Part shown: positions 29,813-35,092 of the stretch, in pieces
Position numbering within the stretch: position 1 is the first letter of the stretch
How the letters are laid out: each line of letters opens with the position of its first letter
From: a virus
Lineage: Duplodnaviria; Heunggongvirae; Uroviricota; Caudoviricetes
DNA length: 40,052 nt
IMG/VR virus record: IMGVR_UViG_646206259_000001
Reading direction: 5' to 3' (one strand)
Made by a program: the position numbers and the translations under genes
Notes under the pieces: model-generated
Database searches by the model: none
Told to the model about the DNA's origin: nothing
What the model saw: only the letters and a program-made list of their open reading frames with translations

Positions 29813-30109
29813 TCAGAATTCCATCTGGATTTGTTCAGAACGCTCGGTTGCCGCCGGGCGTTTTTTATTGGTGAGTCCATCAAGCGCATACTTAAAAGCC
29901 CTGCTAATCGGACTGATGTCTGATGCCATTCCGAAAGCACACAAGACCGAAGCAATAAATCTCCAGTCCGTTCTGCTTATCTTCGATTCATGACAGCCAA
30001 TCATCTTTGCCAGACCGCGCTGGGTAATAGCTGACAGATTGATAAGTAAATCTGTTTCTGCGCGATCAACGTCACGCTGTGATAGTTTGCTGTAACTTGT
30101 TCTTTCCAT
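29813..30109 (-). CDS. cII: Transcriptional activator cII (chimeric: lambda-like C-terminus, divergent N-terminal domain)
   Basis: C-terminal ...LTNKKRPAATERSEQIQMEF identical to lambda cII; N-terminal ~75 aa differ. Confidence 0.75.
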   Translation of the reverse strand: MERTSYSKLSQRDVDRAETDLLINLSAITQRGLAKMIGCHESKISRTDWRFIASVLCAFGMASDISPISRAFKYALDGLTNKKRPAATERSEQIQMEF

Positions 30110-30193: not shown

Positions 30194-30240
30194 CTCGCTT
30201 TTCAGCGACGTAGGACGAATGTCCGTTGTTACAAAGAGCG
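30194..30240 (-). promoter_or_regulatory. nutR candidate: boxA (CGCTCTTTGTAACAA) and boxB hairpin (UCGCU-GAAA-AGCGA) downstream of cro
   Basis: Read on the minus strand; boxA matches the CGCTCTT(T)A consensus; boxB core GCUGAAAAGC is shared with the nutL candidate. Confidence 0.6.
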
Positions 30241-30250
30241 GATCCGCTTA

Positions 30251-30466
30251 TTAAGCGGCTTTGTGTTCCGGCGGGAACACGTCATCAAGACTGACTTTTG
30301 CGCCTAACTTGTTTAGGCACGCAACAAGAGCACGGCATGTTTTAAGGTCTGGGAAGCGACGACCAGATTCCCAATGTCCGATAGCTCCCTGTGTGCATCC
30401 AACTGCCTTAGCAAGTGTTGTTTGAGAGATATTCAGTGACTCTCGATATTTTCGTAGGTTGCTCAT
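30251..30466 (-). CDS. cro: Cro-like repressor (HTH_XRE, 71 aa)
   Basis: MSNLRKYRESLNISQTTLAKAVGCTQGAIGHWESGRRFPDL... HTH; GGAGGG RBS; divergent from cI; upstream part of the 128-aa track ORF discarded. Confidence 0.8.
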   Translation of the reverse strand: MSNLRKYRESLNISQTTLAKAVGCTQGAIGHWESGRRFPDLKTCRALVACLNKLGAKVSLDDVFPPEHKAA

Positions 30467-30577
30467 ATGCCCTCCATAGTAAACACGAATAAAAAAATAC
30501 AATATGTACTTTGCGAATACAAGTAAAAATACACATTGTGCATGGATGGTTCCAGTACAGAGCGTAATAATAAGGAC
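30467..30577. promoter_or_regulatory. Immunity operator/promoter region (OR, divergent PR and PRM); individual operators not resolved
   Basis: 111-bp AT-rich divergent intergenic region between the cro and cI starts; imperfect dyads; motif ATATGTACTTT also present, inverted, near the PL candidate. Confidence 0.55.
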
Positions 30578-31237
30578 ATGAAAATGAAATGGTATGAACT
30601 GGCTAGATCCAGAATGAAAGAGCTCGGCATAACTCAAGAGAAGTTAGCCGAAGAGCTAGGTATGACGCAGGGTGGGATTGGACACTGGTTGCGCGGATCT
30701 CGTCATCCATCTCTTAGTGATATTGGTGTGGTGTTTAAATACCTTGGTATTGATAACATATCATTCAACCACGACGGGACATTTTCACCTGTTGGCGAAT
30801 ACTCATCGGCCCCAGTTAAAAAACAATATGAGTACCCTGTTTTTTCTCATGTTCAGGCTGGGATGTTCTCTCCAGAACTCAGAACCTTTACCAAAGGCGA
30901 TGCGGAGAGATTGGTAAGCACAACCAAAAAAGCCAGTGACTCTGCATTCTGGCTTGAGGTTGAAGGTAACTCAATGACCGCACCAACAGGTTCCAAACCC
31001 AGCTTTCCTGACGGGATGTTAATTCTGGTTGACCCTGAGCAAGCTGTTGAGCCCGGCGATTTCTGCATAGCCAGACTTGGTGGTGATGAATTTACCTTCA
31101 AGAAACTGATCAGGGATAGCGGTCAGGTGTTTCTACAGCCACTAAACCCACAATACCCAATGATCCCATGCAATGAGAGTTGTTCCGTTGTGGGGAAAGT
31201 TATCGCCAGCCAATGGCCTGAAGAGACGTTTGGGTGA
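30578..31237 (+). CDS. cI: CI repressor (HTH N-domain plus LexA-like S24 autocleavage domain)
   Basis: HTH ...[23 protein letters not shown]...; Ala-Gly cleavage site (VQAGMF), catalytic Ser (GNSMTAP) and Lys (FTFKKLIRD); AAGGA RBS. Confidence 0.85.
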
Positions 31238-31276: not shown

Positions 31277-31834
31277 TTGGCAAAAATAGATGATTATCAG
31301 CCAAGCCAAGTAGAAGTTGATAAAGTACTTTATTGTAAAAAAATAGTTAACTTTTCTGGCGTTAAATGGAAACAGAAACCAAGTCGCTCTGATATGTGGC
31401 TACAAGCCCATATCATCCCCTTGGATGAGGATTGTATACCTATACAAGGGCTAAAGTTTGAACTGAAATGGAAACCAGATCAGGATTCAGAACCTGATGA
31501 CCCGATTTCTTACCCTAAAATAAATATTATTGCTTTCTATCATAACAAGAGGGTTTTCGCGGTAGATACCTATCACTTTGACAAACACACGAATAGTTAC
31601 AAGGTCGATCATCCGAAGTACCAAGATATCATTTACGGTGCTCACTACCATGTATACTATGAAGAAGCTGGATACTATAGTGATAGAATAGCGTTTCCAA
31701 TCGAAGATGACATAAACCCAGATGACCTGGTAGGGTATTGGAATTACTTCTGTAAACATCTGAACATAACTTACTCTGGGAGAATACCTTTACCGCTTGA
31801 AGATGAGTCGGGGCAAATGGGGTTTGGAATATGA
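31277..31834 (+). CDS. Hypothetical protein A (185 aa) of the cI-linked module; Tyr/Asp-rich, no TM segment; TTG start predicted, first ATG at 31394
   Basis: ORF 39 nt downstream of cI, AT-rich; stop overlaps the start of the next gene (ATGA at 31831-31834). Confidence 0.55.
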   Translation: MAKIDDYQPSQVEVDKVLYCKKIVNFSGVKWKQKPSRSDMWLQAHIIPLDEDCIPIQGLKFELKWKPDQDSEPDDPISYPKINIIAFYHNKRVFAVDTYHFDKHTNSYKVDHPKYQDIIYGAHYHVYYEEAGYYSDRIAFPIEDDINPDDLVGYWNYFCKHLNITYSGRIPLPLEDESGQMGFGI

Positions 31835-32583
31835 TGTGCTCAACAGTGATCTCACAACTAGGTTTCGAATGCCATCCAATAGGCAAGACCTTGAGAATTA
31901 TCAGTCCATTCACTTACTGTGATGATGGAGAGCATGTCGGTGCCTTTATCCGTGAAGTCAATGGTAGGTATTTAGTTAGTGACAGATGCGATGCCTTAAT
32001 GAATATGGAGGCAAGAGGGATCTCGCTTACCAAAAAACGACTTGATGAGATACGACAATTACTGCTTAAAGAAGGCGCAGAACTCAATGCTCGAGGAGAA
32101 ATCATTGCTTGGGCAACAGAAAAGGATGTCGGTGCGATTACATCGAACATAATTAGAGCTGGTATACTCGCATCAACTTTGTCGTTAGACTGGTATCAGC
32201 CAGTTCAAGCTGAAAAGTTTGAAAGTATGGTTATTGATTATCTATATCACACAGAGCTTAGAGACGCACTTTCTCTTCGTGAAAACGTATATGGCTTGAG
32301 TGGACATCAAATTACCGTCCCTGTAACAATAAAAACCGACATACCTAAATACGTTTTTACATCAAGCGTGAAACACGGAGGAAGCTGGAATAGTGCTTAC
32401 TCATTGCTTGGGAAACTAATTGATCTTAAAGCTTCAAGTGAGGAGTATAACAACAGATTTGTTGTTATAGACAGCGAAGCAATTGGTGATCAAATGCAAC
32501 AACTCTCCTTACTCTTCCATGAATCAAGCCAAGTTCTACCATTCTCCAAAAGAGAGACTTGGGTTAAGAGACTTGCAGCATAA
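31831..32583 (+). CDS. Hypothetical protein B (250 aa) of the cI-linked module; soluble, no recognised motif
   Basis: ATG at 31831 translationally coupled to protein A; followed 5 nt later by a terminator. Confidence 0.6.
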   Translation: MMCSTVISQLGFECHPIGKTLRIISPFTYCDDGEHVGAFIREVNGRYLVSDRCDALMNMEARGISLTKKRLDEIRQLLLKEGAELNARGEIIAWATEKDVGAITSNIIRAGILASTLSLDWYQPVQAEKFESMVIDYLYHTELRDALSLRENVYGLSGHQITVPVTIKTDIPKYVFTSSVKHGGSWNSAYSLLGKLIDLKASSEEYNNRFVVIDSEAIGDQMQQLSLLFHESSQVLPFSKRETWVKRLAA

Positions 32584-32588
32584 TACAA

Positions 32589-32610
32589 CCCGGCCTCAGC
32601 GCCGGGTTTT
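32589..32610 (+). terminator. Rho-independent terminator ending the cI operon (t-imm equivalent)
   Basis: CCCGGC-CTCAGC-GCCGGG stem-loop followed by TTTTCTTT. Confidence 0.7.
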
Positions 32611-32802
32611 CTTTGCCTCACGTTCGCCCACCTAAAAACACATAACCAATTATATTTATTGAAAAATAAATAGATGCAACCCACTAAACCACGCAATTCT
32701 GATCTCTCCTTACATCGCCGAGGCAATACATCCACGCTAAAAAACAACACTATTAAATACAAAGCGTTATAAAAAACCACGCCAACTTACAACAAATTGT
32801 AT

Positions 32803-32831
32803 TGATCTTGTAAAGTACATATCGTACTATT
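32803..32831 (+). promoter_or_regulatory. PL promoter candidate (-35 TTGATC, 17-bp spacer, -10 TACTAT) with overlapping operator-like dyads
   Basis: Sigma70-like hexamers ~45 nt upstream of nutL boxA; dyad AGTACATATCGTACT at 32814-32828. Confidence 0.4.
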
Positions 32832-32876
32832 TAACCGTCAGCAGGACGCTGGAAGCCAAATGGAACAGACTGGCAG

Positions 32877-32922
32877 GCTCTTTAAACAACGTCGACTCTC
32901 GACTACGTGGCTGAAAAGCCAG
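32877..32922 (+). promoter_or_regulatory. nutL candidate: boxA (GCTCTTTAAACAA) and boxB hairpin (UGGCU-GAAA-AGCCA)
   Basis: boxA matches the GCTCTTTAA consensus; boxB 5-bp stem with GAAA loop shares the core GCUGAAAAGC with the nutR candidate. Confidence 0.6.
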
Positions 32923-33019
32923 ATCACCCAACCACATAAGCTGTGGGATGCAATGCCGAAGCAACCGTCTCAGGAGGAGCTTCGAGATTGCATCGCCAAA
33001 GTTTATTCGGGAGGAATCC

Positions 33020-33292
33020 ATGTCCAGAAAAACAGAATTTAAAGGCACCGCAGCTTCTCGCCGTAGAGCTCGTCGCGCAAATCTGCAAAGTCAGGAGGCG
33101 ATCAGCTCCGACAAGCTACACAGGCCAACCCCTTCACGAGTGGTCTTGCAATGCAAGCTCAAACCAGCAATGAGAGCAGAAGTGATAACTCTGACAACGT
33201 TGACCAGAAAATATGAAGGTTCAACTTGTCTTCCGAACGTAGCTCTTTACGCGGCAGGCTACCGGAAATCAAAACAACTGACGGCGAGATGA
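33020..33292 (+). CDS. N: Antiterminator N (P22 gp24-like), 90 aa
   Basis: N-terminal arginine-rich motif (TAASRRRARRANLQ) and C-terminal ...LPNVALYAAGYRKSKQLTAR resembling P22 N; strong GGGAGGA RBS. Confidence 0.75.
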   Translation: MSRKTEFKGTAASRRRARRANLQSQEAISSDKLHRPTPSRVVLQCKLKPAMRAEVITLTTLTRKYEGSTCLPNVALYAAGYRKSKQLTAR

Positions 33293-33308: not shown

Positions 33309-33890
33309 TTACTTGTTTTTGCCATGCTTATCCTGAGCGATAAGTTCATCCATAAGGCTGTCTGCCTTCCCGGCAAACCTAATGTAGCACTCATGTCTAT
33401 AGCTTTCAGGGATAACGAAACGGTCGGTATCAGGATATCCAACAGCAGGAGGCCTTCGAACGAGGAGTCCTTTTTTGAGCAATGAAATTGATTCATGAGC
33501 GCCCTTTTCCGTTTGTAGCTGGTTATTAGCGGCTACAGCGAATGCCAAATACGCTCTTTCTCCAAGAGTTAACGAATCAAACAAATCTTGCACATATTTT
33601 TCTTCTTTAGATTTGCGCTTCTGAGCAGCGAATACCTCAATTCTTTCAGTCACAGCGTGATAAGCGGAATTAACAACGCCGTTAAGCACATAGCTAACGC
33701 AAAACAACAGGATGTAATACATCCAGTAATGAGGAAGGATTTCTGGATTATGCAGGTTTATCCATTCTTTTACGCTTACCGGCATAACAATAATCAATAT
33801 GATCAGGATGATTAGCATATGAATCAACTGTTTAAGTGTCATTCCTTGCAGGAAAAAATGCATTAGTTCCTGCCACCATGAGTTGTTCAT
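33309..33890 (-). CDS. sieB: Superinfection exclusion protein SieB-like (193 aa, membrane)
   Basis: Two hydrophobic segments in the N-terminal half; size and position between N and ral match lambda sieB; sequence match from memory is weak. Confidence 0.5.
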   Translation of the reverse strand: MNNSWWQELMHFFLQGMTLKQLIHMLIILIILIIVMPVSVKEWINLHNPEILPHYWMYYILLFCVSYVLNGVVNSAYHAVTERIEVFAAQKRKSKEEKYVQDLFDSLTLGERAYLAFAVAANNQLQTEKGAHESISLLKKGLLVRRPPAVGYPDTDRFVIPESYRHECYIRFAGKADSLMDELIAQDKHGKNK

Positions 33891-34304: not shown

Positions 34305-34440
34305 TAGTGGCCTTTATTTTTGGCATAAATAACAGAATAAACACTGCACTGTGTATTCATTCCAACGAGTGAATACACGGAGCAATGTCGCTCGTAACTA
34401 AACAGGAGCCGACTTGTTCTGATTATTGGAAATCTTCTTT

Positions 34441-34466
34441 GCCCTCCAGTGTGAGGGCGATTTTTT
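34441..34466 (+). terminator. Rho-independent terminator in the PL operon (tL-type)
   Basis: GCCCTC-CAGTGT-GAGGGC stem-loop followed by GATTTTTTA. Confidence 0.6.
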
Positions 34467-34855: not shown

Positions 34856-34927
34856 GCGCGGCGTTACCGCATACCAATTACGCTTCACTCGAGGCGTTTT
34901 TCGTTATGTATAAATAAGGAGCACACC

Positions 34928-35092
34928 ATGCAATATGCCATTGCAGGGTGGCCTGTTGCTGGCTGCCCTTCCGAATCTTTACTTGAACGAATCACCCGTA
35001 AATTACGTGACGGATGGAAACGCCTTATCGACATACTTAATCAGCCAGGAGTCCCAAAAAATGGATCAAACAATTATGGCTATCCAGACTAA
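34928..35092 (+). CDS. cIII: CIII protein (FtsH inhibitor), 54 aa
   Basis: Hand translation [54 protein letters not shown] matches lambda CIII; absent from the ORF track (<60 aa). Confidence 0.85.
   Translation: MQYAIAGWPVAGCPSESLLERITRKLRDGWKRLIDILNQPGVPKNGSNNYGYPD

Follow-up and report, generated by a model that had tools for sequence, protein, structure and literature searches.

We analyzed a 40,052-nt stretch of viral DNA (IMG/VR record IMGVR_UViG_646206259_000001, Caudoviricetes; hereafter the window) and studied an element at positions 32877–32921 on the plus strand that an initial annotation, made from the letters alone, had proposed as a nutL site. The element is very probably the nutL of a lambdoid prophage with an early-control module of the VT2-Sakai/ev017 type. 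As a nut site it is already known, the same bases being annotated in VT2-Sakai as a prediction. Its boxB hairpin, UGGCU-GAAA-AGCCA, carries a loop of four nucleotides in comparison with five to six in the characterized boxB examples, while in the other features that define boxB it agrees with them. Across ~280 related loci, and at both nut sites, the length of this loop follows the arginine-rich motif of the N protein without exception. An N with the motif F.G..A.RRR[AE][RH]R..LQ and a U-A-closed GNRA-tetraloop boxB may form a fourth natural N–boxB specificity class beside those of lambda, P22/H-19B and phi21, orthogonal to the GACAA class, a proposal for which we see the balance as about even.

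The plus strand of the window corresponds to the leftward direction of lambda, and nutL covers roughly nucleotides 40–85 of the PL transcript and lies 98 nt before N. Its boxA, GCUCUUUAA (DNA GCTCTTTAA), occupies 32877–32885 and is the sole exact copy in the window; with the ACAA after it, the extended boxA GCTCTTTAAACAA reaches 32889, and the continuation ACAAC reaches 32890. The sequence is near the rrn/P22 consensus UGCUCUUUA and matches (C/U)GCUCUU(U)A (consensus as quoted in PMC2724277). A 5-bp spacer hairpin, GUCGA-CUC-UCGAC (32891–32903), follows, its 3′ arm ending at the C of a conserved CUACG; a UACG linker (32904–32907) then joins it to boxB (32908–32921), which has a 5-bp stem, a U-A closing pair and a GAAA loop of the GNRA type. 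CTACG is invariant in 32 of 32 aligned nut sites. The initial annotation had placed a boxA-like sequence and, 18 nt later (the distance filled by 32890–32907), a hairpin between PL and N, and both are present there; of its span, 32877–32922, the start holds and the end lies one base beyond the stem, which closes at 32921. The spacer hairpin, conserved at both nutL and nutR, had been missed. Among loci with the same type of N as the window, boxA is kept in ~100 and boxB is invariant in ~100, and the spacer varies solely in its loop (CUC, ACAC, ACUC, AUC or GCAC).

The second site, nutR, lies on the minus strand at 30195–30242, between cro (30251–30466, minus strand) and cII (29813–30109, minus strand), downstream of the former. 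It has the same layout: boxA CGCUCUUUG (30240–30232) and ACAAC, a spacer hairpin GGAC-AUUC-GUCC (30224–30213) and UACG, and boxB UCGCU-GAAA-AGCGA (30208–30195). The boxB core that the initial annotation had reported downstream of cro was recovered, a second GCTGAAAAGC following CGCTCTTTG after that gene on the minus strand. This core occurs exactly twice in the 40 kb (32910–32919, plus strand; 30197–30206, minus strand), with ~0.1 occurrences expected by chance and two copies reached in 2 of 100 shuffles. The two boxB stems differ by one compensatory change from G-C to C-G. Folding of both hairpins, which had been suggested as a check, gave −7.1 kcal/mol for the isolated nutL boxB (z = −3.05) and −6.7 kcal/mol for that of nutR (z = −2.05). 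A covariance model of 23 related nut sites matched only nutL and nutR in the window (67.5 and 59.9 bits, with the next best match at 8.9 bits); as both sites were in its training set, these values speak only for the absence of a third site. The gene order cII-cro-OR-cI-(two open reading frames)-PL-nutL-N fits the placement of nut sites, with each on the transcribed strand and PL placed via homology to VT2-Sakai. The proposal of a nutL/nutR pair serving one N is supported by position, orientation, boxA, boxB, the N protein (PF25694) and the annotation of VT2-Sakai.

The N antiterminator gene (33020–33292, plus strand) encodes 90 amino acids and is preceded by a ribosome-binding site, GGAGG, at 33011–33015. 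The protein matches Pfam PF25694 (N_peptide; E = 1.5e-32; 112.5 bits, cutoff 27.9) and phrog_271, "anti-termination protein N-like" (E = 2.3e-24); a sequence search of the PDB with N gave no match even at E ≤ 10. The start codon at 33020 fits the conserved start of homologues, M[ST]R[KR]T.F, and the N of 114 amino acids given in some GenBank records is probably annotated too long. As the initial annotation had noted, the C terminus is of the P22 type (LPNVALYAAGYRKSKQLTAR in the window and LPGVALYAAGHRKSKQITAR in P22). The arginine-rich motif, GTAASRRRARRANLQS, spans residues 9–24 and in gap-free register shares 10 of its 16 residues with phi21, 8 with lambda (hand count), 7 with P22 and 6 with H-19B, with a Glu at the position of the lambda Trp. 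A "lambda-like" label for the motif, based on RRR.RRA..Q, was dropped, as the gap-free comparison puts phi21 closer. Judged by its residues, the motif of the window N is a class of its own, and its pairing with the tetraloop looks like a separate N specificity class and not a lambda/P22 hybrid; boxB at 32908–32921 is its predicted binding site. The class occurs widely, among others in Stx phages of the VT2-Sakai type and in epsilon34, a Salmonella phage.

We gathered ~80 loci via the N protein, 120 via a DNA pattern tolerant of loop length (CTACGTSGCTGN{1,3}AAGCS) and 80 via the N of the Salmonella phage epsilon34, together with loci from GTDB and GenBank. About one-third of the pattern matches were chance occurrences in unrelated contigs without boxA context and were discarded. 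A MAFFT alignment of all 32 nut sites mis-registered the pentaloop sites and the nutL sites without boxA; hence, we used an anchored count and an alignment of 23 sequences. The anchored test ignores pairing, taking the 5′ arm of the spacer from after the first AA[CT]G and letting the 3′ arm end at the C of CUACG. Under this rule, at least four consecutive outer pairs formed in each of the 23 distinct spacers (100%), in comparison with 25 to 56% pairing for slid partners. The identity of the pairs varied: pair 2 is U-A, G-C or A-U; pair 3 is C-G, A-U, U-A or G-U; and pair 4 is G-C, C-G, U-A or G-U.

The 23-sequence MAFFT alignment gave the same picture. In the spacer helix, 91.3% of the cells pair and three of the five pairs change on both sides; counting boxB, which adds one, four pairs do so. 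For the structure of two helices, 95.7% of the cells are paired versus 76.5% in shuffles, and the covariation score is 0.43 versus 0.107, neither value being reached in 500 shuffles; slid controls pair at 25 to 45%. Within boxB, the outermost pair is U-A, C-G, A-U or G-C across the family and the second pair is G-C or C-G, while no change is seen in the inner GCU/AGC pairs or in the U-A that closes the loop. Outer pairs that vary below a fixed stem top are what one would expect of a hairpin whose loop and upper stem are recognized by their sequence. The nutL–N cassette was found behind at least five unrelated types of operator and PL (that of the window, H-19B-like, lambda-like, phi21-like and one other, in loci L022–L101). 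The mosaic has a clear boundary, its junction falling at the conserved transcript start CAUCAGCAGGACGC (32837–32849, plus strand). As boxB is invariant despite this variety upstream, nutL and N appear to travel as one cassette.

The association between loop and motif held in each of the samples. Where the motif had the form RRR[AE][RH]R..LQ, nutL and nutR both carried a GNRA tetraloop (GAAA or GCAA); where it was RRRERLKAKA, both carried the pentaloop GACAA. The pattern-based and N-based samples agreed on this pairing. In the unbiased sample gathered with epsilon34 N, each nut site detected in the 39 loci with RRRERRAALQ had GAAA (two short loci yielded no nutR), and 34 of the 41 loci with RRRERLKA[KQ]A[LI]A had a detected nutL and GACAA at every detected site. 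For the remaining seven, the pattern detected no nutL; in six of these, nutR has a GACAA loop closed by U-G. In the group represented by locus L246 (six loci), the nutR boxB reads UCGCU-GACAA-GGCGA, with U-G in place of the U-A closing pair, and nutL falls outside the pattern. We found no locus of mixed loop type among those compared, and nutL and nutR of one phage always agreed in loop length. Besides GTAASRRRARRANLQS of the window, tetraloop-type motifs include RRRAHRAELQS of POCJ13 (nutL GCAA, nutR GAAA) and RRRERRAHLQS of locus L121 (GCAA at both sites), and loci L131, L143, L170 and L197 carry further ones.

Natural chimeras narrow down the residues involved. The N of epsilon34 has an H-19B-like body with motif and boxB of the tetraloop type, and that of L197 has a lambda-type C terminus (...KMRGKSIPLV), again with motif and boxB of the tetraloop type. 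A third, L270, resembles the tetraloop class through RRRER, then continues with LKAQAIA and has a GACAA loop. Because of these cases, the discriminating residues seem to lie just after RRRER, and the two classes differ in one loop base and the residues at this place (RA.LQ vs. LKAKA). In the GTDB loci, a lambda-like motif with Trp went with GAAAA and P22-like motifs with GACAA. The same material contained further apparent N/boxB classes (loci L014, contig JAJXBQ010000254.1, L015 and L016, in the region upstream of N): a motif NARNRRRARRQAQREQ with CCCGC-CGAAAU-GCGGG; a Citrobacter N with CCUCA-GAAUC-UGAGG; and a Pantoea N with a longer stem. Two contigs, L011 and L014, labeled as a Segatella copri metagenome-assembled genome, carry lambdoid sequence of the E. 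coli type and look like binning contamination.

Several points weigh against reading the element as the nutL of a distinct specificity class. The number of independent observations is limited, with roughly eight tetraloop-type motif variants against three to four pentaloop types; many loci come from E. coli prophages that are almost the same and, as close relatives, represent far fewer independent lineages than loci. The function of the N/nut pair in the window is drawn from homology and comparative inference. In the minimum free energy fold of the naked leader, whether 61 or 193 nt are taken, boxA is base-paired to the 3′ half of boxB and the boxB hairpin does not form. In addition, boxA and NusB/S10 are reportedly dispensable in H-19B, and the role of boxA in the window, seen by this analogy, is uncertain.

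The competing fold can be traced to the boxA bases GGCUCUUU (32877–32884), which are complementary to the boxB loop and 3′ arm GAAAAGCC (32913–32920); the same is true of nutR. The pairing has no covariation support and is absent where nutL lacks boxA, as in the nutL of the epsilon34 and H-19B types. We rejected it as a functional alternative: the base preceding GCU changes with no compensating change on the other side, and boxA is missing from some members. As the pairing is not conserved, we regard it as a thermodynamic side effect of an A-rich loop lying opposite a U-rich boxA. A second alternative, a register with a 3- to 4-bp stem and a UGAAAA loop, was also rejected, as the U-A closing pair is invariant in 23 of 23 aligned tetraloop sites. 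The lambda N requires a U-A loop-closing pair (PMC12027372).

Among the other explanations, the strongest is that the tetraloop is a neutral variant, the N of the window and that of H-19B/P22 sharing one specificity to which GAAA or GACAA is immaterial. H-19B indeed has the same stem, CUACG context, spacer hairpin and U-A closing pair, and lambda N peptide is said to tolerate a GAAA-tetraloop boxB, while the specificity of P22 N is reportedly easily relaxed. With the C flipped out, as it is in P22 (PMC12550061), the two loops would moreover offer one and the same GNRA scaffold, G-A-A-A. Against this stands the complete separation of loop length and motif class in ~280 loci, including the chimeras with an N body of the other type, and the agreement of the two nut sites within each phage. 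The authors of the epsilon34 study also independently inferred a novel boxB specificity from the N-terminal 27 residues (PMC2629481). We consider the neutral variant unlikely, and less probable than a specificity class of its own.

Two further explanations concern the hairpin itself. It could serve mainly in the posttranscriptional control of N, by translational autoregulation or RNase processing, and not in antitermination: it sits in the leader of N, upstream of a long and strongly predicted stem (leader z = −4.0), and in lambda, N is said to act through nutL to repress its own translation. At nutR, however, which is not upstream of N, the same core of boxB occurs again together with the spacer hairpin and boxA, and as nutR has the same structure, a role in N control would add to antitermination and not replace it; as the main function of the hairpin, we regard it as highly improbable. 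That a chance hairpin stands beside a chance boxA-like word, with no function, would be consistent with the lack of enrichment of GCTCTTTAA allowing up to one mismatch (12 occurrences in the window versus 7.7 expected) and with the unremarkable folding of the 61-nt nutL region (z = −1.1). It is contradicted by the exact duplication of the 10-mer GCTGAAAAGC in both expected places and orientations, by the conservation of the site with compensatory changes across many phages and by its annotation as nut by others. Given the comparative data, we treat chance as excluded to the extent that computation allows, its probability being vanishingly small.

With the element read as nutL, the sequence of events, by homology with lambda, P22 and H-19B, would be as follows. 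As the PL transcript emerges, its RNA would fold into the spacer hairpin and boxB. The boxA GCUCUUUAA would be the binding element of NusB-S10, and the spacer hairpin would fold away the intervening bases and bring boxA close to boxB, following the "reducer" idea of H-19B. The N-terminal arginine-rich helix of N would bind UGGCU-GAAA-AGCCA, and N would bridge to NusA and RNA polymerase via its central segment (SS[DE].LHRPT.SR) and its P22-type C terminus. The modified polymerase would then pass the terminator-like sites at 34439–34460 and 34880–34897, allowing the expression of cIII, kil, gam, bet and exo, and nutR would serve the PR operon in the same way, at tR1. The analysis shows the sequence, position, fold and conservation of the sites, the covariation of their base pairs and the link between motif and loop; that N, NusB-S10 and NusA bind here, and that antitermination follows, is what we infer from these.

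Since the extra loop base is absent, the loop should adopt the canonical GNRA fold, and the variation of its second base (GAAA or GCAA) fits this. The 5-nt loops of lambda and P22 imitate a GNRA tetraloop by one flipped-out base (PMC12027372; PMC12550061). If the tetraloop class is real, its recognition needs no such base. Extruded or noncontacted bases of the lambda boxB loop have reportedly been linked to NusA recruitment; if that link is true, the tetraloop class must recruit NusA without them. With a tetraloop class that is real, a one-nucleotide indel and a few residue changes would also be a route to new antitermination specificities among co-resident Stx and other prophages. The module would be a natural minimal example of how RNA–peptide specificity may switch, by one loop base and a handful of residues and with natural chimeras at hand, and a tetraloop-specific N peptide would add a further compact and orthogonal pair for RNA tethering to lambda N–boxB, which is in wide use. 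N-dependent readthrough controls early gene expression and hence, indirectly, the induction of toxin phages. A search of the openly accessible full-text literature found no description or test of a tetraloop boxB class, and subscription papers may hold one.

The leader as a whole is strongly structured. The 193-nt N leader folds with z = −4.0, and none of 200 shuffles folded as well. Between nutL and the ribosome-binding site of N, and outside the nut proper, a long imperfect hairpin is predicted at 32936–33007 (plus strand), which by analogy is a possible counterpart of the lambda N-leader stem, associated with RNase III processing and control of N translation. Upstream, we placed PL at 32802–32830 (plus strand), with −35 TTGATC (32802–32807), a 17-nt spacer and −10 TACTAT (32825–32830), the hexamers being read directly from the sequence. 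The region aligns with the "putative major leftward promoter" of VT2-Sakai (AP000422) and was not picked up by a simple consensus promoter scan. Transcription probably begins near 32837–32838, inside the conserved GTCAGCAGGACGC.

Past nutL, the genes follow in the order N (plus strand), sieB (minus strand), Ea10, cIII, kil, gam, bet and exo. A consensus scan found a hairpin with a U-run resembling an intrinsic terminator in the PL operon downstream of N (34439–34460, plus strand) and a second terminator-like site of the PL transcript just upstream of cIII (34880–34897, plus strand); these are the presumed targets of the N-modified polymerase. The latter is closely followed, at 34915–34973 (plus strand), by a lambda cIII thermoregulator RNA (Rfam RF01804; 88.5 bits). 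This RNA was the sole match of an Rfam scan of the whole window at the gathering threshold, and as no nut family was matched, Rfam neither confirms nor denies nut. As in P22, the 3′ end of N is faced by a convergent gene for a homologue of the superinfection-exclusion protein SieB (33309–33890, minus strand; PF14163, E = 2.5e-22). On the other side, OR lies between cro and cI (30536–31237, plus strand), and two open reading frames in the position of rexA/rexB (31277–31834 and 31831–32583, plus strand) fill the space between cI and the PRM terminator at 32587–32608, beyond which OL/PL follow. The pair matches the PADLOC candidate defense system PDC-M24 (component A weakly, E = 4.8e-4; component B, E = 4.7e-10), and in Pfam the first frame matches DUF6978 below the cutoff and the second DUF1828 above its cutoff; it may be a prophage-encoded defense or exclusion pair.

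Among sequenced relatives, the 700 bp around nutL are 100% identical to Escherichia phages ev017 and ev207 and ~93.5% identical to VT2-Sakai, the Stx1-converting phage, Stx2 II, Nil2, 1717 and many other Stx phages; a nutL–N module of the VT2-Sakai type is shared by the Stx1-converting phage, Stx2 II, Nil2, 1717, ev017 and ev207. The nutL–N segment (at least 80% coverage) is present in 759 of 5,426 complete E. coli genomes (14%), including Nissle 1917 and the type strain, where RefSeq labels N as a hypothetical protein. In VT2-Sakai (AP000422), the feature "putative N-utilization leftward" lies on identical bases and the whole nutL leader is the same base for base; "putative N-utilization rightward" lies on the bases of nutR, which is near-identical, and N is 98.9% identical. 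The GenBank nut features of VT2-Sakai are predictions and end inside the boxB loop, and the window carries a slightly different operator/PL variant upstream, without any other difference of note.

The layout of boxA, AAY, spacer hairpin, CUACG and a 5-bp boxB with inner GCU/AGC pairs and U-A closing is shared with H-19B, 933W and HK97. Among relatives that have been studied, the nut site of H-19B/933W stands closest to that of the window, and H-19B is the best studied of them. The nutR of H-19B (AF034975) reads CGCUAUUUUCACAAU-GGAC-AUUC-GUCC-UACG-UCGCU-GACAA-AGCGA and its nutL ...AUACAAC-GAUUCG-AAUA-UGAAUC-UACG-GCGCU-GACAA-AGCGC. From the spacer hairpin through tR1 to the start of cII, the nutR regions of the window and H-19B are near-identical, with one extra loop base in H-19B (GACAA vs. 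GAAA). The spacer hairpin of H-19B is reportedly a "reducer," and the window hairpin agrees with this architecture in both pairing and covariation. The two N proteins are homologous in their central and C-terminal regions but differ in length (127 amino acids in H-19B vs. 90) and in the arginine-rich motif (GNSRSRRRERLKAKALA vs. GTAASRRRARRANLQS), and the nutL of H-19B has no recognizable boxA, whereas that of the window is near consensus. In H-19B, N-dependent antitermination has been described at nutR/tR1, with two nutR hairpins and a loss of function in mutants of the arginine-rich motif (PMC3526286).

Epsilon34 belongs to the same tetraloop class, with CGGCU-GAAA-AGCCG at nutL, UCGCU-GAAA-AGCGA at nutR and the motif GSAAGRRRERRAALQ. 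Its N has 120 amino acids and an H-19B-like body, and its nutL lacks boxA. A "novel BoxB specificity" was predicted by its authors from the N-terminal 27 residues (Villafane et al. 2008; PMC2629481). With P22 (N is gp24; NMR complex PDB 1A4T), the window shares a boxA of the GCUCUUUAA type, the inner half of the boxB stem and the C terminus ALYAAG[HY]RKSKQ[IL]TAR. The nutL boxB of P22 is identical to that of H-19B, has the loop GACAA and stands without a spacer hairpin, and the P22 motif is only 7/16 identical to that of the window N. In the complex of P22 N, the C of GACAA is flipped out and contacted by the peptide (PMC12550061). This C is absent from the GAAA loops at both window sites; nutL is therefore not to be filed under the H-19B/P22 specificity, though its architecture is of that type.

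With lambda, the window shares the logic of boxA, spacer and boxB in the PL and PR transcripts, as well as the 5-bp stem, the U-A closing pair, a purine-rich loop of the GNRA type and the RRR.RRA..Q motif. The initial annotation had called the stem unlike lambda boxB and the loop lambda-like. The former stands (GCCCU/AGGGC in lambda vs. UGGCU/AGCCA), while the latter needs correction: the lambda loops GAAGA and GAAAA are five nucleotides long with the fourth base extruded (PMC12027372), whereas that of the window is a true tetraloop. The lambda N also has Trp18, where the window has Glu, and a different C terminus, and with the other stem and shorter loop these features set the window apart from the lambda specificity. 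The suggestion of a hybrid N/nut specificity was right in separating the window from lambda; instead of a lambda/P22 hybrid, however, the nearest relative of its boxB is the H-19B/P22-type GCU-GACAA-AGC minus one loop base.

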